Assembly (NCBI GenBank): GCA_963827935.1 | Contig: CAWHCN010000011.1 | Location: 433,183 to 497,182, forward strand | Reading direction: 5' to 3' | DNA: 64,000 nucleotides | From: an uncultured Planctomycetota bacterium | GTDB taxonomy: Bacteria > Planctomycetota > Planctomycetia > Gemmatales > Gemmataceae | In this document: piece by piece, positions 797-58,903 of the stretch | How positions within the stretch are numbered: the stretch's first letter is position 1 | Layout: each line of letters starts with the position of its first letter | The notes under the pieces: model-generated | Databases searched by the model: none | What the model saw: the letters and a program-made list of their open reading frames with translations, nothing else | Told to the model about the DNA's origin: nothing | Translations under genes and position numbers: made by a program

Positions 797-1144
797 CTAT
801 GCATGTTCAAAGTGTCGCCCCAACCTGACGGCAGTGATCAGCACGACAACAGTCCATACCACTGCCATAATAAACACTGGCCCCGTGACCAAAATGATCA
901 ATCCACCTGTTGATCCCGACGGATGCTGGTACTCCGCTCGGGTAGCGAGAGCCGCGAGTATTCCCTCTAACACCAAACCCAGTGCGCCTGCAACAAGCAG
1001 CAGTTGGGCGGCCCGAAGCGCTACACCAGAGCGTGTAAACAGCAGGCAGCCAGCTAGTGGCCTTGGCACGAAATAATGCAAGAAATTCCAGCTGCAGCTG
1101 CTACCCTGGGAATGGAGGCCCATCAGGTGTAGGAGGCTGCCCAT
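797..1144 (-). CDS. hypothetical small membrane protein
   Basis: 115-aa ORF with two hydrophobic helices (LLLVAGALGLVLEGILAALAT and LIILVTGPVFIMAVVWTVVVLITAV). Local GC is lower than background. Confidence 0.3.
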   Translation of the reverse strand: MGSLLHLMGLHSQGSSCSWNFLHYFVPRPLAGCLLFTRSGVALRAAQLLLVAGALGLVLEGILAALATRAEYQHPSGSTGGLIILVTGPVFIMAVVWTVVVLITAVRLGRHFEHA

Positions 1145-1806
1145 GCGTGGTCGAAGGCCTCGCCCTTTGACGCTCGATTCCGATGATGTCGCTATCCTCC
1201 AGTGGCTTGCGCGCTGCCGCTCGCAACCTTGGTTCCAGATTCAACATGCTCGCATCCTCCTGGGGATCGCCGCTGGCAGGCGCGTCAAGACCCTGGCCAG
1301 CGAGTTGCAATGCGACGCGGCCACGGTCTGGCGGGTCTGCCGTGGCTACGAACAGCACGGCCTCGATGTCGTGCTGTGGGAGGCCCCCCGGCCGGGTCGC
1401 CCGCCGCAGCTTTCCCCCCTGCAACGCGCTCAGATCGTGCAGTTGGCTTGTCTGCAACCCATCGCCAAAGGGTTGGAACGTCACGCACTGGAGCAGCGCC
1501 GACTTGGCGCGACAAGCCATCAGCGATGGCATCGTCAAGACCGTCAGTCCGCGTGCGGTGCGACAGATCTTGCATGGCGTCGATCTGCAGCCACACCGCA
1601 CCCGATACTGGAAGACGAGTCGCCTCGACGCGGAGTTCAAGGAACGGGCCGAACGGGTGCTGTGGTGCTACGGAAATGCCGAGCGTTTGGCCGCGCGTGG
1701 GCTCTGGGGCGTTTGCGTCGATGAGATGCCCAACCTGCAGATTCTGGAGCGGCAGCCGATCCGGCGCGCGCGGCCTGGCTGCATCGAACATCAGGAGTTT
1801 GGGTAG
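1143..1806 (+). pseudogene. IS630-family transposase remnant: N-terminal HTH plus the start of the DDE domain, internally frameshifted (~1480) and cut at 1800 by another insertion
   Basis: Frame 1143: ILQWLARCRS...ILLGIAAGRRVKTLASELQCDAATVWRVCRGYEQHGLDVVLWEAPRPGRPP. Frame 1183: KGWNVTHWSSADLARQAISDGIVKTVSPRAVRQILHG...LWGVCVDEMPNLQILER. The second frame is colinear with the intact IS630 transposase at 29520-30850 (VSVDEATSLQAIER). Confidence 0.6.
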
Positions 1807-1813
1807 TGGGCGA

Positions 1814-2086
1814 TTAGTGTGTTGACGCGGATCGCTCGCGATGGCGGCGAAGCCCCTCTTCGAGGGCAAGGAACAGATCAGCCTTCGCTGCGCGAGGAGA
1901 AACAAAAGACCCGTTCGAGTTCGCATAGGTGCCATCGTCGGCGTCGTCCATCCGCCAGCGATAAGCCCCGTTGCTGCCCGTAACTTCGAGAGTCATCTTC
2001 TCCATGACGCATCGGCCGGTGTCGCCTTGCCAGAAAGGGGCCGCAAGGATCAGTTCTAGCCGACGAATGTTCTGTTCGGCGTTCAT
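1814..2086 (-). CDS. DUF1508 (YegP-like) small protein, passenger of the insertion element
   Basis: LEVTGSNGAYRWRMDDADDGTYANSNGSFVSPRAAKADLFLALEEG resembles the YegP/UPF0339 repeat (dG.yrFrLka.NGe...SegY.sk). Confidence 0.35.
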   Translation of the reverse strand: MNAEQNIRRLELILAAPFWQGDTGRCVMEKMTLEVTGSNGAYRWRMDDADDGTYANSNGSFVSPRAAKADLFLALEEGLRRHRERSASTH

Positions 2087-2557
2087 GTCAAAGCTCCCTG
2101 TTCATGCGTGGCCGCTCCTGGGTGGCAGACCTAGATGGCCATTTCACAAGTTCCTGAGCAGCTTTTCAGCCGTAAGTCGTTGGCCTGTAACGTCCGAAGC
2201 TGCTCATGGATTTACGAAACGGTCATCTAGCCCTGATCCGGTTCGTCCTTGATGAACAAGCCCGCCAGTTCCGCCCAGCTCATTCGCCTGGACAGTTTGC
2301 CGTTGTTTGGCCACCAGCGTATCCCGCCGACGCTGACGATCATGGTGCCGAGCTTGCGCTCTTTCTTTCCCATTTGTCCCAGACATCAAATTGAATCCCG
2401 GCCCTCCCGAGCCAGATTGGTTCCTGGATGCTCGCCTTCACGTACTTGGTAGGCCGACCCTTCTGTCTGCCTCGCATGACGACTCCTCGTTGAGTGATGT
2501 CGGGGTGATGCGTGACCGCTCTTGCTATTCTACGCGCGGCGAAGGATAATACCCAGC

Positions 2558-2824
2558 ATGGCCAAGAAACCCCGCAAGCCGAAGACCCCTGACCCGGCAT
2601 CCTTCGCATTCGGCGTGCTCCAGCACGTCATCGAGGCTACGGGCGACACGCCGGCCGAGCCCCCGGCCCCGCCGGCGGATGTCGGCAAGGACCCTGCCGC
2701 CGTCGCCCTGGGGCGCAAGGGCGGGTTGAAGGGTGGGCCGGCCAGGGCGAAAAAGCTCGGCAAGAAGAAACTCCGCGAGGCGGCCAAGAAGGCTGCGGCG
2801 GCCCGTTGGGGCAAAGCCGAATGA
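2558..2824 (+). CDS. small basic protein with a GRKGG...KGG...AAARWGK C-terminal motif
   Basis: MAKKPRKPKTP...ALGRKGGLKGGPARAKKLGKKKLREAAKKAAAARWGKAE. This is a KGG-like basic tail seen on small mobile-element or stress proteins. An antisense ORF overlaps it. Confidence 0.3.
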   Translation: MAKKPRKPKTPDPASFAFGVLQHVIEATGDTPAEPPAPPADVGKDPAAVALGRKGGLKGGPARAKKLGKKKLREAAKKAAAARWGKAE

Positions 2825-2829
2825 ACTCA

Positions 2830-3198
2830 CTAGATCAGGTCTTGCTCATCGAGCACTTTTCGACATTCTTCGGGTAGTCGGTGACTATTCTGCAAAGCCC
2901 CGACGCGGAGCTTCTTCAGTAAAGTGGCAGAGCATGGCTTATGAGGCTTCAGCAGCTTCGCTTTGCGTAGAGTTTCGAGAGCGGCCAAGGATGTAACTCT
3001 TGCTCGCTCGTATGGCACATATGTCTTATGGCCAACGAAAGGGTGCTCGCCCTTTTCTACAATACAACCTGCCTTGTCGCCAACCGTGTGTGTCGTAAAA
3101 TTTACGATAACGACATTATCTGAATCTATATTCGTTTCAGATATGATGATCCACAGATGATGGTACATGCCATCAATAAATGTGTCGCCAGGGTTCAT
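2830..3198 (-). CDS. putative toxin partner of the Panacea antitoxin, with a loosely MazF/PemK-like pattern
   Basis: 122-aa ORF. Its start overlaps the upstream Panacea gene stop by 4 nt. GDTFIDG...HLWIIISE...VVIVNFTT...ERARVTSLAALETL loosely fits the PemK/MazF pattern (GD.v.vdf..pvlVlS..vvvvPiTs..dqirtid.rL). The region is AT-richer than background. Confidence 0.35.
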   Translation of the reverse strand: MNPGDTFIDGMYHHLWIIISETNIDSDNVVIVNFTTHTVGDKAGCIVEKGEHPFVGHKTYVPYERARVTSLAALETLRKAKLLKPHKPCSATLLKKLRVGALQNSHRLPEECRKVLDEQDLI

Positions 3199-3762
3199 TT
3201 CTTCCTTGCAAATAGCTTGTCAAAATAGGCTTTTTCTTGAGCATCTTGAAGAATGGCGTCTTTGTCCTTCAATCGGCCAACCGCCTCAATCAGATGCTCA
3301 AAGGGAATGGCAGTTGACGTACCTTTATGGTAGTTTTTCTCCCATTCCTCGAAGTGAGTTTCCCGAGCGATGTCAAAGTCGTCTTGTCCAAGACGCGCGG
3401 CCGACACCTCGTTCAGCAAGCTGACTTCCTGGCGGGATAGGGCGGAAGGGCTGAGGTCAGTAACAAGACTAATGAGATAGTCTTCATTCTGGAAATGGCG
3501 GGACCATTCAGCTTGGTCCGAGTGAGAAGCCCTTTATGAGATCGTATACCTCGCTGTGAATTGGACCGTAGTCCATCGCGCACAAGCGACCGCCGACAAT
3601 TGGCCGACCCCTCCTCTTGAGACTTTCGCGGTCCGCAATGTAAAGAAGGGCCAATAGCCGTTTCCGGCCCATGATTCGATGGGGGGCGAGCCGCAACAGT
3701 GTTGCCGCTGCTTCAATCGCCTTTCGCGTGTCGATGCGGAAAATCATGGCGGTGCTCCTCAA
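3195..3762 (-). CDS. Panacea-domain (DUF4065) antitoxin-like protein PanA, apparent +/-1 frameshift near 3515
   Basis: N-terminal frame: KRLLALLYIADRESLKRRGRPIVGGRLCAMDYGPIHSEVYDLIKG matches the Panacea/SocA/GepA core (KLqKLLYfa....g.pl...f.AwahGPV.pevY). The C-terminal frame continues SHSDQAEWSRHFQNEDYLISLVTDLSPSALSRQEVSLLNEV.... The two frames overlap at 3511-3533. Confidence 0.55.
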
Positions 3763-3935
3763 TCGGTTAGACGGCCCGAAACGTCTAAAGGTTCAGAGCG
3801 GTCACGTCTCCTAGCGGCGATCACCGTGCGCATTCTCCGGCTTTCTACGAAAAAATCCAGCGAATTGTTCTTGCCATGCGTGAGCGGTCACGTATAATAA
3901 GTATGTGGTGTTGATCGTTACCGGGAGCAACTCAG

Positions 3936-4925
3936 ATGCAATGCCCGACCTGCCAGAACGAAGCCCGCAAGTTCGGCCGCGACCGAGCCGGCAACCAGCG
4001 CTACCAGTGCCAGGCGTGCCGCAAGACGTTCTCTGACCGCCCGGTCCGGCCCCTGGGCGAAATGCGCCTGCCGCTCGACAAGGCACTGCCCTGCCTCCAG
4101 CTCCTGACAGAAGGCAACAGCATCCGGGCCACGGTGCGGATCAGCGGCGTGGCGAAAGACACCGTGATTGCCCTTCTGGTCGCGGTCGGGGAGAAGGGCG
4201 AGGCGTTGCTGCGGGAGAGCTTGCGGGGCGTTCCCGCACGGGACGTGCAGCTCGATGAAATCTGGGGATTCATCGGCATGAAGGAGAAGACGAAGACCCG
4301 GAAGGCGCTGGAGACATCGGACATTGGCGATGCGTATTGTTTCGTCGCCATCGAACGGACGACGAAACTGGTTCTCGCGTGGTATCTCGGCAAGCGGGAT
4401 CAGGGCAGCACGCGGATATTCCTTGAGGACGTGGAGCGCTCCACGCGCGGTCGGGTTCAGTTGAGCACGGACGGCTTGAAGTGCTACCCGTCGGCCGTTC
4501 AACTGGCCTTCTCGGAATGGGAGGTTGACCACGGCACGTTGGTCAAGGAGTACGCGACGAAGGCGGATGAGCACCGCTATTCGCCTGGTGAAGTCATTGA
4601 GACTATCAAGGGGGTTTGCTGTGGCAACCCCGACCCGGCAAAGATTTGCACGCGCCACGTCGAACGGCATAACCTGTCGATGCGGATGCAGAACCGGCGC
4701 CTGACCCGGTTGACGAACGCGTTCAGCAAGAAGTGGCAGAACCATGAGGCCGCGCTTGGCCTGTACTTCGCCGTGTACAATTACGTCCGGCCGCACGGTA
4801 CACTTACGCATGACGCAGAGGATCGGCGGAAGACGACCCCGGCGATGGCTGCCGGGTTGACCGATCATCCCTGGACCTTAGTGGAGCTGCTCCAGGCGGC
4901 GGCCAGTGCGGCGTCAACACACTAA
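3936..4925 (+). CDS. IS1595/IS1-like family transposase
   Basis: N-terminal Zn-ribbon CPTCQNEARKFGRD...YQCQACRKTF. DDE region DEIWGFIGMKEK...DGLKCYPSAV. C-terminal ERHNLSMRMQNRRLTRLTNAFSKKWQNHEAALGLYFAVYNYVRPH is typical of IS1595/IS1 transposases. Confidence 0.75.
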   Translation: MQCPTCQNEARKFGRDRAGNQRYQCQACRKTFSDRPVRPLGEMRLPLDKALPCLQLLTEGNSIRATVRISGVAKDTVIALLVAVGEKGEALLRESLRGVPARDVQLDEIWGFIGMKEKTKTRKALETSDIGDAYCFVAIERTTKLVLAWYLGKRDQGSTRIFLEDVERSTRGRVQLSTDGLKCYPSAVQLAFSEWEVDHGTLVKEYATKADEHRYSPGEVIETIKGVCCGNPDPAKICTRHVERHNLSMRMQNRRLTRLTNAFSKKWQNHEAALGLYFAVYNYVRPHGTLTHDAEDRRKTTPAMAAGLTDHPWTLVELLQAAASAASTH

Positions 4926-5057
4926 TCGCCCACTACCCGATTTTTTTGGTTTCTCCGGCCAATGCGTGCAGCGGGACCTTCGGACAGTGGTTCAGCCTGA
5001 GCGGCCAGCACGCTTTGCTCAAACTGATCCTTTATCGCCAGCGCGTGTCTGCACGCG

Positions 5058-5157
5058 CGGAATTATATGCGACCTGGCGCCTGGCGCTGAAATGTGAAGG
5101 CGCATGTCCTGATTTGACAAGGGATTGCGACTCGCGCGCCAGGTCGCATATAATTCC
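5058..5157. repeat. perfect 23-24-bp inverted repeat (GGAATTATATGCGACCTGGCGC ... GCGCCAGGTCGCATATAATTCC) with a ~50-bp spacer
   Basis: Read directly in the sequence. The AT-rich arms contrast with the flanks. It may be an insertion-sequence or MITE end remnant, or a strong hairpin. Confidence 0.6.
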
Positions 5158-5663
5158 CGGCGAATTCAGTACGACATGGCAATTTCCAGGGAACCGGCAG
5201 CGCCTTCCGTCTCCTCGAACCGGTTCGCGAGGCGGCGAAGCATTCCGGCGAGTAGGCGGGGGTTGGCAGGCCAGCCCTGCGGGAGCTTCTTGGTTCCCGT
5301 GAGCCCAGCGGTGTCGGTGAGGCGTGCGAGAAGGTCGCGGACGATGCCTTCCCATGTCCCGCCCTTGTCATGTAACGGTTGGCGGAGGGGCGGCGCGATG
5401 GCCGAGGTGTCGAGGAAGGCCGTTGCTGGGTGAGGTACGATGAGGCGTCATTGACATTTCTCCCCAGAGCGGTCGGGGGAACGCGTGGTCCGGTGAGGTA
5501 CAATCCCGCGAGGGTTCTTTTGCGGGGCCGTTGGCCATGCAGTGCCGCGCCAGTTCCTTGACGATGCTCCGGGGGATGTATGGGCTGCGCCCCAGCCTGG
5601 GGCTGAGCGGGGCGGCAAAGTGACCTGATCGACCGCGGGCGACGTTAGTCGAGGTCGGCGGCG

Positions 5664-5888
5664 TTACTTCTTGCCATTGAGCCAGTCCTCGATTTCCCAG
5701 GCCCTGAAGCGGATCGTGCCGCGCCGGCCAGGGCTCAGCTTAAGCGGCCCCGGGAACCGCCCCGCGGACACGGCGCGTTCGATAGTACGGCGGGTGAGCT
5801 GAACCAGTTCGCAAACGTCAGCCATCGAGAGGAGCTTGTCGATCCGTCCTTGACGCGGAGCTACGGCGGTTTTCGGTGCGGCGAGCAT
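5664..5888 (-). CDS. alpA: AlpA/Xis-family excisionase-type HTH regulator
   Basis: LLSMADVCELVQLTRRTIERAVSAGRFPGPLKLSPGRRGTIRFRAWEIEDWLNGKK is a typical AlpA/HTH_17 prophage regulator sequence. Confidence 0.7.
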   Translation of the reverse strand: MLAAPKTAVAPRQGRIDKLLSMADVCELVQLTRRTIERAVSAGRFPGPLKLSPGRRGTIRFRAWEIEDWLNGKK

Positions 5889-6241
5889 GGCCTGCCTCGG
5901 TTTGTTCTGGGCGAGGATGCCTGTGTCGGCTTGCGGCGTATCACGACGCACCCAAGTCTAACCGGCGAAGGACGGAGAGTTGAGGGGACTAGGCGGACAG
6001 CAGCGATCTTTTGAGTGCCGGCCGGCGGCGTCTATGGACCTTGTCGAGAAGGTTGGACTATAACGGAGTGTTTGTGTAGCGTTAACGGCCCAGCGCCACC
6101 CCCAGCGCTACACCGCGATGACCGGAATGTGTCGGATTGAGTCGTAATGTGTCGTGTGTTTTGTGGGTCGCAACCCATTGCCGTAACAGAGGTTGTCGCA
6201 TCCGGACGCATAACATCGGCATGTGTTGCATAGGGGACAAT

Positions 6242-25773: not shown

Positions 25774-25907
25774 GCCCATCCTCGGGCCAGGGACCGGAGG
25801 AGGCCGGTATCAACGCCGGCCTCTCCGGAACGGGACCAGGCAGGTCCCCAAGGTGGTTTAACTCCCATGATGACGCTTCCTAGATCCATTCAACAGGGGA
25901 TGCAGCA

Positions 25908-27629
25908 ATGGCAGGCTTCGGCTCGATCCTGGCCGGCGTGACCGGCCTCAACGCGAACCAGCAGATGCTGGACATCATTGGCAATAATCTGGCCAACTCG
26001 AATACGACCGCTTTCAAGGGGCAATCGGTAAGTTTCGAGGACCTCTTCTACCAAACGCTCCAACCGGCGACGCCCTCGACACTGAACGTCGGCGGCATCG
26101 ATCCCATTCAGGTCGGATTCGGCACCAAGGTGGCCAGCATCGACAATGACATGTCACAGGGCACGTTGACGCCCACTGGAAACGATCTGGACATGGGCAT
26201 CCAGGGGTCCGGCTTTTTCGAAGAGAGCGACGGGACCAACACGTACTACACGCGCACGGCTCGTTTGCGGTCGATAGTGAGGGCTACCTGCAGGACCCGG
26301 CGACGGGCTTCAACGTCCTCCGTTTCGGCAACGTCGGCGAGCCGACTGCCGCCGGGCCGGGCTTCCAGGTGCCCGGCGACGACCGCATCCAGATTCCGTA
26401 CGGCAGCAGCATTCCGGGAAACATCACCCAGAACGTCACGCTGCAGGGCAACCTCGACGCCGCCGCGGCCGGCGCCGCCAGCGGCCAGGCCACGGCCAAT
26501 GTCACGCTGGCCGGCACGCTCGACTCGGCGGCCTCCAACGGAACCACGGTGAATGGCACAATCCAGATCTACGACTCGTTGGGGGCGCCTCACACCCTCA
26601 GCGCGACGTTTACCAAAGTCGGTGTGGATGCCCAAACGAACGACGACGAATGGTCGCTGGCCACCTCGGTGCCCGCCACGGAAGGTTCCGTCTCCGCCGG
26701 CACGCCGGTGACGCTCAAGTTCGATCCCAACACTGGTGCCCTCGTAACTCCGCAGTCGGGCACGGCGTCCCTAACCCTGGATTTCAGCCCGAGCGGCGCC
26801 TCCAGCAGCCAGCCCGTCACGCTCAGCCTGTCCGGGCTGTCGGAGGCCAATTCCGTCTCAACGGCGGCCGCGACCAGTCAGGACGGTACAGCGGCCGTGG
26901 CCGGTGCCACCGTCCCCGCGGCCATTCAGATCTTCGACTCCAAGGGGACAGGCCATACTCTCACCCTCACCTTCACCAAAACCGCCGCCAACCCGAACGC
27001 CAACCCACCGATTCCTGAATCGTGGAGCATTGCCGCTTCGATCCCGGCCAGCGAGGGGACGATCAGCGGCACCCTGGGTCCATCACGTTCAACACCGACG
27101 GCTCATTGGCCTCCACAGGGTCTACCAGCCTGACCTTCGACTTCAGCAATAGCGGAGCTTCGTCCAACCAGGTCATCAATTTCAGCGAGGGGGTAGTCAA
27201 GGGGTTCACCGGACTGACCGAGTTCGGGGGCAACTCCACGGCCGCGGCCATCAATCAGGACGGGTTCGCCTCCGGCACGTTAAACACCGTGAGCATCGGC
27301 GTGGATGGGACCATCGACGGCGTCTTCACCAACGGAAAGACCACGCCGTTGGCCCAGCTGGCCGTGGCCCAGTTTGCCAACGCGGCCGGCCTGTCCCGTC
27401 AGGGGAACAACCTCTTCAGTGCCACCACGCAGTCGGGCCAACCCTTGGTCGGCGCCGGCCAGAGCGCGGGCGCGGCAGCGTCCAACAGGGAGTCCTGGAA
27501 CAGTCGAACGTGGATGTGGCCCAGGAGATGACGCAGCTCATCATCGCCCAGCGCGGCTACGAGGTGAACGCTCGCACGATCACGGTGAGCGACCAGGTGC
27601 TGCAAGATTTGACGCAGATCATTCGGTAA
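25908..27629 (+). pseudogene. flgE: flagellar hook protein FlgE with at least 3 frameshifts (near 26262, 27075, 27485)
   Basis: MAGFGSILAGVTGLNANQQMLDIIGNNLANSNTTAFK (Flg_bb_rod) ... SFAVDSEGYLQDPATGFNV ... hook repeats ... SLEQSNVDVAQEMTQLIIAQRGYEVNARTITVSDQVLQDLTQIIR (Flg_bbr_C). The segments are spread over three frames. Confidence 0.8.
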
Positions 27630-27635
27630 CGAAAA

Positions 27636-27709
27636 GGCGAGCGGGGTGGCGTTAGCCCCCCGGTGATGACATCATCATCAGCGGGGGCTAATGCCACTCC
27701 GCTCGCTCC
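27636..27709. repeat. family B palindromic repeat (GGCGAGCGGGG.GCGTtAGCCCCCCGGTGA ... TCA.CGGGGGCTAA.GCC...CGCTCGC), terminator-like hairpin after flgE
   Basis: Related copies at 39450-39516, 40265-40327 and 52100-52161. Confidence 0.7.
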
Positions 27710-56681: not shown

Positions 56682-58780
56682 TGCCGCGAACGCACGCTTC
56701 CCGTCAAATCACTGTCGCTCCTCCTGGTCGGCCTGGCCGGCCTGTTTCTGATGCCGGCACCCACGCCGGCCGAACCACACATCGGCAAGCAGGACCCTGC
56801 CGTCGCCAAGCTGGTCTGCGAGTTCCTCCACGGCGGGCCACCTCAACCGCCCGGAAATCGGCGACGAGATGTCCAAACGCCTCTTCCGCCGCTTCCTCAA
56901 GGGCCTCGATCCCACCAAGCTCTATTTCCCAAGAGCGACATCGACGAGTTCAAGAAGCACGAAACCGACCTCGACGATCAGCTCCTCAGGCCGGCGACTC
57001 AGCTTCGCCTACAAGGTTTACGAGCGTTTCATCGACGCGCGTCGCCGAACGCCAGAAGCTGATCGAGGAACTGGTCGAGGCCAAGCACGATTTCACCGTC
57101 GAAGGAAAGCCTGGACACCGAATCACGACGCGATGCGACTACGCCGAGCAACGAGGCCGAGGTCCACGAGCGCTGGCGGAAGCGGATCAAGTTCGACCTG
57201 CTGGTGCAGCGCATGGCCGAGAAGCCGATGCCCGAGGCCGAGGCCAAGAAGAAGATCCTGACCCGCTACCAGAGCGTCCTCAAGCGCTGGAAGCAGGTGG
57301 ACAACTCCGATCTCCTGGAACTCTATCTCGCCGACCTGGCCACCAGCGTCGATCCGCATTCGACCTACATGTCGCCGACCACGCTGGACGATTTCGAGAT
57401 CGCCATGCGCCTGAACCTGGACGGCATCGGGGCGGTGCTGCGGCAGGAGAACGGCCAGACCATCATCGTGGAAGTCGTGCCCGGCGGCGCGGCGGCCAAG
57501 GACGGCCGGCTCAAGCCCAAGGACAAGATCGTCGGCGTGGCCCAGGGCGACGACAAGTTTGTCGACGTGATCGACATGAGGCTGCGCGACGTGGTCAAGC
57601 TGATTCGCGGGCCGCGCGGCACCAAGGTGCAATTGAAGGTCGTCCCGGCCAGGCAAGGTCGACCGCGTCGTCTACGACCTGACCCGCCAGAAGATCGAGC
57701 TGAAGTCGCAGGAGGCCCGCGGCGAGATCGTCGAGCAGGGCAAGAAAGCCGACGGCAAGCCGTACCGGATCGGCGTCATCGACCTGCCGTCCTTCTACGC
57801 CGAAATCGACCCCGGCGGCGACGGCAAGCCGGACGCCAAGAGCGCCACCGAGGACGTCCGCAAGATCCTCAAGGAGTTCGATGCCAAGGGGGGCGTGGAC
57901 GGCGTGGTGCTCGACCTGCGCCGCAACGGCGGCGGCTTGCTGACGAAGCCCTGCGCCCTGACCGGGCTGTTCATCGACCAGGGGCCGGTCGTCCAGGTGA
58001 AGAGACGCCGCAGGGCCGGGTCGCACCATCAGGACGACCCGGACAAGGGGATCGTCTACGGCGGGCCGCTCGTGGTGCTAGTCAGCCGATTCAGCGCCAG
58101 CGCGTCGGAAATCCTGGCCGGCGCGCTTGCAGGACTACGGCCGGGCCCTGATCGTCGGCGACTAGCACCACCTACGGCAAGGGGACGGTGCAGACGATCA
58201 TCGACCTGGGCATCGAGGCTTCGGACCAGAACCCGCGCCAAGCTGGGCGCCCTGAAGCTCACCATCCAGCAGTTCTATCGCCTCAACGGCGACAGCACGC
58301 AGGATCGCGGCGTGCTGTCCGACGTCGTCCTGCCGTCGCTGACCGAGTACATCACCAGCGGCGAGAAGGAGCAGGAGTTTGCCCTGGCCTTCGACAAGGT
58401 CAACCCGGTGGAGCACGAGGAGTTGGGGCTGGTGCCGGCCGACCTGAAGGCGGTCCTCAAGGAGCGTTCCGCCAAGCGCGTCAAGGACTCCGCCGATTTT
58501 ACCAAACTGGCCAAGGACATCGAGCATCTTCAAGGCACGCAAGGCGAAGAAGAAGCTGCCGCTCAATGAGAAGGAGCTGCGCGAGCAGACCAAGAAGGAC
58601 GATGCCGACAAGCTGGAGCAGAAGATCAACGATCTGGCCCCGCCCGAGGCTCCGTCAGGCGATGCTACCTTCAAGTTCAAGCACAACTACATGAACGACG
58701 AGGTCCTGCGGATCATGGAGGACTTCATCCAGGGCAAACGGCTGGTGGCGGGCGCTGAGGCGGCAGCTGTCATTGGGGTG
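56682..58780 (+). pseudogene. prc: tail-specific (C-terminal processing) protease Prc/S41A-like, split over at least 7 frame changes
   Basis: Signal peptide and fragments across three frames: DIDEFKKHETDLDDQLL, SFAYKVYERFIDARR, LIEELVEAKHDFTVEGKPGHRITTRCDYAEQ, LLVQRMAEKPMPEAEAKKKILTRYQSVLKRW...IAMRLNLDGIGAVLRQENGQTIIVEVVPGGAAAKDG (PDZ), GVVLDLRRNGGG...VVLVSRFSASASEILAGAL (S41 catalytic Ser region), LGALKLTIQQFYRLNGDSTQ. The 3' end merges into a family A repeat. Confidence 0.65.
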
Positions 58781-58903
58781 GCACGCCCTGAGGTACTCCG
58801 AAGGGCGTGCTGCCTCATGAACACGCCCTTCGGAGTACCTCAGGGCGTGCTGCCTCATGAACACGCCCTTCGGAGTACCTCAGGGCGTGCCACCCTGCAT
58901 TTC
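58775..58903. repeat. family A palindromic repeat cluster (one forward and two reverse copies with identical spacers TGCCTCATGAAC)
   Basis: ggggtggcacgccctgaggtactccgaagggcgtgctgcctcatgaacacgcccttcggagtacctcagggcgtgctgcctcatgaacacgcccttcggagtacctcagggcgtgccaccc. Confidence 0.8.

Follow-up and report, generated by a model that had tools for sequence, protein, structure and literature searches.

Pairs made of a Panacea antitoxin (PanA) and a MazF-like toxin (PanT) were described by Kurata et al. (2022, PNAS; PMC8832971), who reported PanT clusters without domain match, the similarity of which to EndoA, PemK and MazF was found by HHpred. Clusters T5 (for example WP_116809181.1) and T6 (P. moraviensis PanA WP_083354365.1 and PanT WP_083201923.1) correspond to MazF-like PanT associated with PanA, and a PanAT pair of B. 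ruminantium, with the PanT WP_026646888.1, is also given (PMC8832971). In the pairs of this study the antitoxin gene is followed by the toxin gene, with overlaps of -4 or -1 (PMC8832971). The PanT of P. moraviensis is toxic and inhibits protein synthesis, and PanA neutralises it; in the same screen, not all MazF-like PanT candidates were toxic in E. coli (PMC8832971).

In the window, i.e. the whole 64 kb stretch of DNA analysed here, a first-pass annotation made from the sequence alone had proposed a Panacea antitoxin gene followed by a small toxin-like partner, both carried as passengers by an insertion sequence (IS), and had suggested that the partner could be a new PanT type. This last suggestion is not supported as far as a new kind is concerned, since a PanA with a MazF-like PanT was already reported and validated, and MazF-like PanT without domain match are among the clusters of Kurata et al. 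(2022).

Passenger genes of an IS1-type element

The features of the locus are listed below by position in the window.

1801 to 4938, no strand: whole IS1-family insertion sequence of 3,138 bp, passenger genes included, ending on both sides in perfect inverted repeats of 28 bp
1801 to 1828, plus strand: left terminal inverted repeat GGGTAGTGGGCGATTAGTGTGTTGACGC, 100% complementary to 4911 to 4938 and containing GGTAGTG
2558 to 2824, plus strand: 88-aa ORF rich in Lys and Ala, convergent with the toxin gene and kept in the related IS
2830 to 3198, minus strand: 122-aa MazF/PemK-fold toxin candidate (panT), intact ORF, fold taken from a predicted structure
3195 to 3527, minus strand: C-terminal part of panA, codons 74 to 183, in the shifted frame, its TGA overlapping the toxin ATG
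3527 to 3528, minus strand: extra base in panA, CTTC against CTC in relatives, from the alignment with L003/L004
3529 to 3747, minus strand: N-terminal part of panA, codons 1 to 73, up to the frameshift, with conserved LLALLYIADRE and GP motifs
3748 to 3830, minus strand: panA leader, with the palindrome TTAGACG-N8-CGTCTAA at 3767 to 3788 and a GAGGAG ribosome-binding site at 3755 to 3760
3871 to 3898, plus strand: promoter-like TTGCCA-16-TATAAT upstream of the transposase gene (11 of 12 consensus positions, a consensus match only)
3936 to 4925, plus strand: IS1-like DDE transposase of 329 aa, encoded by a single ORF and bearing a zinc ribbon at its N-terminus, from profile matches
4911 to 4938, minus strand: right terminal inverted repeat, overlapping the transposase ORF at its 3' end

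The transposase gene, panA and the 122-aa ORF are all located between the inverted repeats 1801-1828 and 4911-4938, and 28-bp inverted repeats were recovered in none of 100 shuffles, the chance expectation being 0. A related element of 2,688 bp (L004, found identical inside the locus L003) displays the same gene order as the window IS between inverted repeats of its own. The PanAT pair is thus a passenger of an IS1-type element, inside its inverted repeats, as had been proposed. Ends of the IS1 family follow the consensus GGnnnTG (ISfinder), to which the GGTAGTG of the window repeats conforms, and GGTAGTG is also present at both ends of L004. An 8-9 bp target-site duplication was sought at the IS flanks and was absent (AGGAGTTT and GATTTTTT on the two sides in the window, ACTTCT and AGAAAG in L003), so that a recent transposition of the window IS finds no support there.

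The transposase matched Pfam DDE_Tnp_IS1 (E 7.4e-9, 36.5 bits for a cut-off of 24.1) and the IS1/IS1595 zinc domain (36.3 bits, cut-off 28), and scored 88.7 bits with the NCBIfam IS1 family transposase, below the equivalog cut-off of 100. It shares 56.5% identity with the transposase of L003/L004. The 88-aa ORF is 59% identical to an 86-aa ORF of L003/L004 and is missing from the non-IS copies of the pair; no family match was found for it, and a Pfam search of the small ORFs within the IS gave zero matches.

The panA-panT pair: linkage, spread and role

An ORF at 3508-3762, in which the first-pass annotation had recognised the Panacea core, is present on the minus strand and encodes 84 aa from a TTG, while the panA homologues begin at ATG 3747 (MIFRID...). 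The gene goes on in a second frame up to the TGA at 3197-3195, as had been noted. The frameshift between the two parts does exist and lies at 3527/3528, about 12 nt from the estimated position near 3515; it consists of a single additional T in the minus strand (GGGCTTCTCAC in the window against AGGC-TCTCAT in L003), the removal of which restores an ORF of 183 aa. This frame-corrected product matched PF13274 SocA_Panacea above threshold (E 5.9e-16, 59.8 bits, gathering cut-off 25.7), residues 34-135 covering positions 4-112 of the 113 of the profile across the frameshift junction, which upholds the assignment to the Panacea antitoxins; it also matched phrog_1281 (E 7e-21). PanA has a Panacea domain followed by a C-terminal tail of 48 residues and lacks a DNA-binding N-terminal domain, and its C-terminal part retains the invariant or near-invariant residues W81, L103, L111, H131, E134, W135, I147 and A155. 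No solved PanA structure was turned up by sequence search.

The stop codon of panA overlaps the start of the 122-aa ORF (3198-2830) by the expected ATGA, and this 4-nt overlap is common to the loci of the relatives. A gene of the same PanA subfamily was found directly upstream and on the same strand in 95 of the 96 loci having upstream sequence, and both genes displayed a dN of 0.05-0.30, far below a saturated dS, which indicates a coding ORF conserved beside Panacea genes. With this bicistronic arrangement, which is that of PanAT systems, the pair forms an obligate two-gene unit in more than 90 loci. There are thirteen close homologues and several thousand more distant ones, and the toxin family (~125 aa) comprises 3,492 clusters at 50% identity. 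It occurs in prophages of ~4% of complete E. coli genomes, where the homologue is WP_000458584.1 / WP_014640052.1, and a genome scan with a narrower family alignment returned mostly Planctomycetota.

Taken together, the locus is very probably a toxin-antitoxin operon of the PanAT kind and of type II, for which an IS1-family element serves as the carrier, with an assembly indel as the cause of the panA frameshift. The ATGA overlap suggests that panA and the toxin gene are translationally coupled, and PanA would bind and neutralise the toxin directly, by analogy with other PanAT pairs. As part of the IS, the pair probably works as an addiction module, at the cost of cells that lose the element or the carrier DNA, and abortive-infection defence may be an alternative role.

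Two IS lineages whose transposases are 56% identical keep the same set of panA, panT and small ORF. Between them, PanA (83% amino-acid identity) and the 83-nt leader (85% at the nucleotide level) both stand above the transposase, the leader, 85.4% identical to L003, being better conserved than any other segment of the element. Its palindrome is confined to the IS-borne copies, and a regulatory role of this leader can be proposed from its sequence.

A main role in phage defence by abortive infection, with Panacea as the sensor and the pair as an accidental cargo of the IS, is possible but appears rather unlikely to us. Homologous pairs are found in temperate phages of E. coli, Yersinia, Klebsiella, Pseudomonas and Vibrio, and in Escherichia phage Lys8385Vzw, the only one examined, the pair adjoins the integrase gene, a typical position of accessory or defence genes; the non-IS locus L002 has GmrSD and methylase genes as neighbours, and a sensory role of Panacea as well as links between TA systems and defence systems have been put forward by Ernits et al. 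(2023). However, PADLOC models matched neither PanA nor the toxin, and the better conservation of the pair and its leader than of the transposase between the two IS lineages suggests selection within the element. This proposal concerns the biological role only and is compatible with the molecular mechanism of a type II PanAT operon given above.

Origin of the panA frameshift

The frameshift of panA most likely reflects an indel of the assembly and not a biological inactivation, because many frameshifts of this kind are found in flgE and prc of the window and because the reconstructed PanA shows no loss at conserved positions. By direct inspection of these two genes, the frame was seen to change at least three times in flgE and at least eight times in prc, each piece being still well conserved. 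Beyond its frameshift, panA remains open for 110 codons up to the correct overlapping stop, every conserved residue is retained in the reconstructed PanA, and its dN shows no increase in comparison with the L003 lineage. In the toxin gene, which is intact, none of the conserved residues is lost. The first-pass annotation had offered both a consensus error and an inactive module as readings, of which the former is clearly favoured by the indel-type frameshifts of flgE and prc at the expense of the latter.

A real frameshift is unlikely. It would truncate panA to 84 aa and make of the module a decaying or silenced remnant, unless the truncation were tolerated. In that case antitoxin could come in trans from another IS copy with an intact panA, or the toxin could still be neutralised by a 74-aa C-terminal fragment whose translation restarts at the in-frame TTG 3419, with AGGAAG 5 nt upstream. 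The extra base is indeed present in the sequence as given, panA is broken in three relatives (L001, L008 and L012), and a disrupted toxin gene is found in L018, L019, L022 and L021, the last of these from the finished genome of Singulisphaera acidiphila. However, with so many indel-only frameshifts in conserved genes of the window, one more is expected through error alone, and no secondary damage is seen downstream of the frameshift, where the conserved residues are all kept. Selection should moreover act against an intact and fully conserved toxin deprived of its antitoxin, the 64 kb contain panA, the toxin gene and the transposase gene in one copy each, and the three relatives with a broken panA may, as we assume, come from error-prone assemblies too. 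The assembly of the window being rich in indels, single frameshifts in it are not to be read as biology.

The toxin candidate and its described counterparts

The loose fit of the 122-aa ORF to PemK/MazF, previously noted from its hydrophobic and β-strand pattern, found support in the predicted structure (pLDDT 91.8, pTM 0.85), which corresponds to the SH3-like barrel of MazF, Kid and CcdB followed by two extra C-terminal helices. The large majority of the top structural matches of this model were MazF/Kid RNases. At the sequence level, the window protein had no match in Pfam, including PF02452 PemK_toxin, which was the most recurrent weak Pfam match among its relatives (7 of 141, sub-threshold, best E 0.0013), and one JGI homologue carries the name MazF-type endonuclease. 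With the profile built from 141 sequences of the family, hmmsearch against the whole of PDB returned nothing at E<=10. Alignments by hhalign of the toxin family with E. coli MazF, or with a 5-sequence alignment of MazF, Kid, EndoA and ChpBK, were not significant, and a search seeded with the latter alignment led to near-identical Bacillaceae NdoA only.

His14 is the sole invariant residue of the toxin family, and C45 and H52 are more than 90% conserved. The canonical catalytic Arg of MazF (R29 in E. coli) is not conserved; from the topology and the insignificant alignment, its place, at the start of strand 2, is apparently taken by His14. In the same alignment, which is consistent in register, Thr35 (>90% conserved) pairs with T52 of MazF and may occupy its place, and the GEHPF loop would resemble the GYPFE of MazF. 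The free toxin would most likely act as a sequence-specific endoribonuclease which blocks translation. That it is instead a MazF/CcdB-fold toxin of non-RNase type, i.e. a CcdB-like gyrase poison or a protein reaching another target through its two extra helices and the His/Cys-rich set H14, C45 and H52, seems quite improbable to us: the missing Arg, the pattern of His and Cys conservation and the lack of a significant MazF profile match would suit it, but the structural matches are in large majority RNases, the weak Pfam matches point to PemK and not to CcdB, validated MazF-like PanTs inhibit translation, and the catalysis of Kid also involves a His.

What is new here is modest and resides in the carriage by an IS1-family element and in the well conserved panA leader, the pairing of a PanA with a MazF-like toxin being already known. 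We would only tentatively go further and regard PanAT as a selected, integral part of an IS1-family lineage, with a toxin belonging to a large His-dependent, Panacea-tied clade of the MazF fold whose specificity or target differs from that of canonical MazF. If true, the element would bear an IS-encoded or transposition-coupled addiction circuit, as proposed for Tn3. A family of ~125 aa, devoid of Pfam, NCBIfam or PADLOC model and labelled 'hypothetical protein', becomes annotatable as a MazF-fold PanT candidate, always located after one specific PanA subfamily.

With regard to the clusters of Kurata et al. (2022), the E. coli, Acinetobacter and Endozoicomonas accessions of the toxin family were absent from the part of Dataset S1 consulted, and genus-name look-ups in the supplements of that study, together with accession look-ups in those of Ernits et al. 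(2023), gave no family accession in the parts covered. Cluster T3 (E. coli STEC O31) was rejected as it contains membrane toxins, and membership in T1, where phage Emek is placed, is unlikely given that the subfamily's PanA from E. coli has no match to Emek. The window pair resembles T5 and T6 by its upstream Panacea antitoxin without N-terminal domain, by the overlap of the two genes (1-4 nt) and by a toxin without CDD or Pfam match which recalls MazF, PemK or EndoA at the structure or profile level. Vicinity to transposase genes, frequent for pairs of T5 and T6, is a further shared trait; the window pair is demonstrably inside IS inverted repeats, in a host which is probably a planctomycete.

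The pair differs from MazEF and PemIK (Kis-Kid) by its Panacea antitoxin, in place of a MazE or PemI of AbrB or RHH type, and the toxin differs from MazF and PemK by the lack of a PF02452 match, a loop between strands 1 and 2 shorter by ~7 residues, an invariant His which apparently stands at the position of the catalytic Arg, and two additional C-terminal helices. PanA shares the PF13274 family with SocA of the type VI system SocAB of Caulobacter, to which it is linked by a weak NCBIfam SocA_antitoxin score (29.5 bits), far under the equivalog cut-off of 190, and between the toxin and SocB there is no relationship. In its mode of action SocA is a ClpXP adaptor and not a stoichiometric inhibitor.

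The carrier itself resembles what we take to be the single-ORF, ISMhu11-like subgroup of IS1 elements (ISfinder), with one long ORF for a zinc-ribbon and DDE transposase, GGnnnTG-type ends and a target-site duplication which is variable or absent. Its length of well over 1 kb is due to the passenger genes, and its transposase departs from the IS1 equivalogs by its score (88.7 against 100 bits). As for the TA passengers of the Tn3 family (Lima-Mendez et al. 2020, mBio, PMC7157771), the pair lies inside the transposon ends, beside and divergent from the transposition gene, an arrangement which suggests shared regulation and an addiction role. Unlike them, it belongs to the PanAT family and is carried by an IS1-family element with a single transposase and neither resolvase nor res site. 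The locus offers a clean example of a TA operon which a small IS1-type element holds between its inverted repeats, and extends from Tn3 to simple IS the idea of TA genes as part of the transposition module.

An IS1-like element enclosing the panA-toxin pair

The Panacea-domain antitoxin gene (panA) and the 122-amino-acid toxin ORF lie between the inverted repeats of a 3,138-bp IS1-like element, where they are divergent from the transposase gene. The element comprises the following features.

1801-1828 and 4911-4938: perfect 28-bp terminal inverted repeats (GGGTAGTGGGCGATTAGTGTGTTGACGC; 0 expected by chance)
1814-2086, minus strand: 90-aa ORF overlapping the left inverted repeat
2227-2506, minus strand: ORF of ~83 aa, one frame correction needed
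2558-2824, plus strand: 88-aa Lys/Ala-rich ORF, convergent with the toxin gene, 59% amino-acid identity to the ORF of the related element (L003/L004)
3747, minus strand: start of panA by ORF reading, ATG (MIFRIDTRK...)
3936-4925, plus strand: single-ORF transposase gene, 329 aa, with an IS1/IS1595 zinc ribbon and IS1-type DDE homology

The transposase exceeded the cut-off of Pfam DDE_Tnp_IS1 and scored 88.7 bits with the NCBIfam IS1 equivalog, just under the required 100. About 730 bp of the element hold two further small ORFs besides the 88-aa one, and none of the three (88, ~83 and 90 aa) had a family match. A related element was recovered as a 2,688-bp unitig from three samples (L004), which starts with GGTAGTGTCTTA and ends with its reverse complement, and which is contained base for base in a 17-kb contig (L003). 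It has the transposase, PanA, toxin and small ORF of the window element in an identical layout, which independently supports the IS reading. No target-site duplication was found in the flanks of either copy. The perfect repeats enclosing the pair and the layout shared with L004 bear out the proposal, made in the first-pass annotation, that the pair is an IS passenger. The GC content is 43-52% over the toxin-antitoxin genes (2850-3450) versus ~60-66% in the transposase gene, 60-70% around the toxin-antitoxin genes and 65-75% in the surrounding genome, so that the cargo genes seem to be of other compositional origin than the IS backbone.

Nucleotide identity between the window element and the related L003/L004 element, per segment
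Transposase gene: 62%
Toxin gene: 64%
Small ORF: 65%
panA: 77%
83 nt upstream of panA (3748-3830, minus strand): 85%, above every gene of the element

This leader contains a palindrome, TTAGACG-N8-CGTCTAA (3767-3788), which the GAGGAG ribosome-binding site closely follows. It was not found upstream of the non-IS copies of the pair, and may correspond to an operator or leader structure particular to the IS-borne operon.

To the left, an IS630-like transposase remnant (1143-1800, plus strand; HTH_32/HTH_29 N-terminus, continued in a different frame) stops abruptly at the left inverted repeat and does not resume past 4938; this suggests that the IS1-like element either inserted into another IS or recombined beside it. 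A 27-nt inverted repeat (93%; 5054-5080 and 5136-5162) is present just to the right, and a small HTH_17/AlpA-like DNA-binding gene lies nearby (5664-5951, minus strand). This region may belong to a larger integrated element.

The antitoxin gene and its frameshift

On the minus strand, a mechanical ORF call starts with TTG at 3762 and ends at 3508 after 'DLIKGFSLGPS*', and another reading frame, open from ~3527 onwards, ends with a TGA at 3197-3195. Alignment to the two related contigs bearing an uninterrupted 183-aa gene (L003, L004) revealed exactly one surplus base in the window ('AAAGGGCTTCTCACTCG' versus 'AAAAGGC-TCTCATTCA' in the relatives), which places the frameshift at 3527/3528; the first-pass annotation had rightly detected it but set it near 3515, about 12 nt away. 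Deletion of one T restored the 183-aa ORF. The corrected protein matched Pfam PF13274 (SocA_Panacea) from residue 34 to 135 (profile positions 4-112 of 113, E 5.9e-16, 59.8 bits for a cut-off of 25.7), and this match runs continuously across the junction at residue 73/74, which establishes the PanA domain identity and confirms that the Panacea ORF noticed at 3508-3762 continues, frameshifted, to 3195. Matches were also obtained with phrog_1281 (PHROGs, E 7e-21) and, weakly, with the NCBIfam SocA equivalog (29.5 bits vs 190). About 48 residues extend past the end of the Pfam domain. As previously noted, the TGA of panA and the ATG of the intact 122-aa ORF (3198-2830, minus strand) overlap as ATGA.

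Genuine decay does happen in this family, since some relatives have a disrupted panA or toxin gene, as does the toxin gene of the finished Singulisphaera acidiphila DSM 18658 genome (L021). Among the first 22 related loci, roughly one in three carries a frameshift, either in panA (L001, L008 and L012) or in the toxin gene (L018, L019, L021 and L022); part of these may be assembly errors and part real decay. Other genes of the window are similarly affected. The flgE gene (25,900-27,650, plus strand) has its rod N-terminus, D2 domain and canonical C-terminus in three separate frames, with at least three switches (junctions at ~26,256, ~27,078 and ~27,470). In prc, encoding a tail-specific protease (56,700-58,800, plus strand), the TSP_NTD, PDZ, S41 and DUF3340 domains are spread over three frames with at least eight switches, all three frames being used within 58,084-58,211. 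The pieces of both genes are still clearly protein-like and look otherwise undamaged; such switches fit an indel-error-prone assembly and render any lone frameshift in the window suspect. Past the panA frameshift, the correct frame runs through 110 codons without interruption before reaching the stop that overlaps the toxin start, and retains the subfamily-conserved Trp81, Leu103, Leu111, His131, Glu134, Trp135, Ile147 and Ala155. Its dN to the non-IS locus L002 (0.242) is close to the value for the intact L003 copy (0.206). An undamaged, fully conserved toxin gene, as present here, would be hard to tolerate without its antitoxin. Taken together, these observations make an assembly error the likely cause of the frameshift, favouring the consensus error over the inactive module, both of which had been envisaged.

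The 122-aa partner

The 122-aa protein had no match in Pfam, NCBIfam or PADLOC, and matched phrog_19071 of PHROGs (function unknown, E 1.2e-14). Thirteen close homologues (33-67% identity) are nearly all 122-129 aa long, and a profile search of 1.84 billion cluster representatives returned 3,492 sequences at E<=1e-3 and 1,932 at E<=1e-10. In an alignment of 141 sequences, His14 is the sole invariant residue, and Gly4, Phe7, Leu15, Trp16, Thr35, Cys45, His52, Tyr63 and Leu94 are at least 90% conserved; all are kept in the window toxin. Compared with L003 or L002, the window genes have saturated synonymous sites but a dN of 0.24-0.30 (toxin) and 0.05-0.24 (PanA), which shows purifying selection acting on both.

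We gathered 102 loci from exact-protein look-ups, GTDB species genomes (15), JGI metagenomes (52) and IMG/VR (28), and searched their six-frame ORFs with HMMs for both proteins. Synteny is strict: among the 96 loci that extend 300 nt or more upstream of the toxin homologue, a PanA-subfamily gene lies directly upstream on the same strand in 95, the single exception being L049, where PanA is divergent. Identities of the two proteins drop in parallel across loci, a pattern consistent with co-evolution. These data indicate that the ORF is a genuine conserved gene, coding and kept beside Panacea genes elsewhere.

The family was found in Planctomycetota (Gemmataceae, Isosphaeraceae, Pirellulales, Singulisphaera), Chloroflexota, Elusimicrobia and Terriglobia, in temperate phages of Escherichia, Yersinia, Klebsiella, Pseudomonas and Vibrio, and on Acinetobacter and Endozoicomonas plasmids. 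Of 5,426 complete E. coli genomes, 208 carry the pair, under the RefSeq names 'Panacea domain-containing protein' and 'hypothetical protein'. One E. coli prophage carries homologous PanA and toxin proteins (L104; NZ_CP028112.1 5,122,190-5,123,178; WP_000458584.1 and WP_014640052.1), and in phage Lys8385Vzw (L103) the pair adjoins the integrase gene.

An AlphaFold2 model built with a 14-sequence alignment was confident (pLDDT 91.8, pTM 0.85), with seven strands and three helices. The 50 best Foldseek matches in the PDB were without exception MazF or Kid (TM 0.49-0.67), and the best BFVD matches were phage 'PemK-like' proteins; a MazF-type fold is thus predicted, and the initial impression of a loose PemK/MazF fit was right at the fold level. 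By sequence, the link stays below threshold: the commonest weak Pfam match among relatives is PemK_toxin (7/141, best E 0.0013), one JGI homologue is annotated as MazF endonuclease, and both the profile searches of PDB sequences and hhalign against MazF were negative. A non-significant, unfiltered HMM alignment paired 'VPCTT' of E. coli MazF with 'VNxTT' of the family. From topology, we infer that His14, at the start of strand 2, would take the place of the catalytic Arg29 of MazF, and 'GEHPFV' appears to resemble MazF 'GYPFEV'. The toxin is MazF-like in fold only; being below the curated PemK_toxin threshold it is not a member of that family, and the MazE/PemI partner is missing beside it.

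Proposed mode of action and relation to described PanAT systems

The feature is real and its first reading correct: probably, it represents an operative PanAT toxin-antitoxin module on an IS1-like element. PanA proteins bind and directly neutralise their toxins, those without an extra N-terminal domain acting via the Panacea core or C-terminal helices, and MazF-like PanTs inhibit translation (Kurata 2022, PMC8832971; Ernits 2023, PMC10440598). By analogy, the window PanA would bind and neutralise its toxin, which would itself inhibit translation. From the predicted fold, the toxin may be an endoribonuclease, for whose active site His14, Thr35 and His52 are candidates, and we lean slightly towards such an RNase-type model for its enzymology. 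The module could serve as an addiction system for the IS or the DNA that carries it, or in phage defence.

Among the 88 PanT clusters listed by Kurata et al. (PMC8832971), T5 and T6 (~40 members each) have the antitoxin-then-toxin order, an overlap of -4 or -1 nt, and toxins lacking CDD hits that HHpred relates to EndoA/PemK/MazF. For the pairs of P. moraviensis (T6) and B. ruminantium, both toxin-antitoxin function and inhibition of translation were validated. By description (order, overlap, MazF-like toxin) the window pair resembles T5/T6, and its family may be T5, T6 or a separate MazF-fold cluster. The T3 cluster, which contains membrane toxins, was ruled out as its home, and accession look-ups of toxin-family relatives gave no match in the portion of the Kurata supplementary lists covered. 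This kind of system is thus already known, and the suggestion of a new PanT type is not supported as a new kind. PanATs often adjoin transposase genes (PMC8832971). The most interesting remaining point is the IS1-family carriage with a conserved leader, a parallel to the toxin-antitoxin modules that Tn3 transposons carry (PMC7157771).
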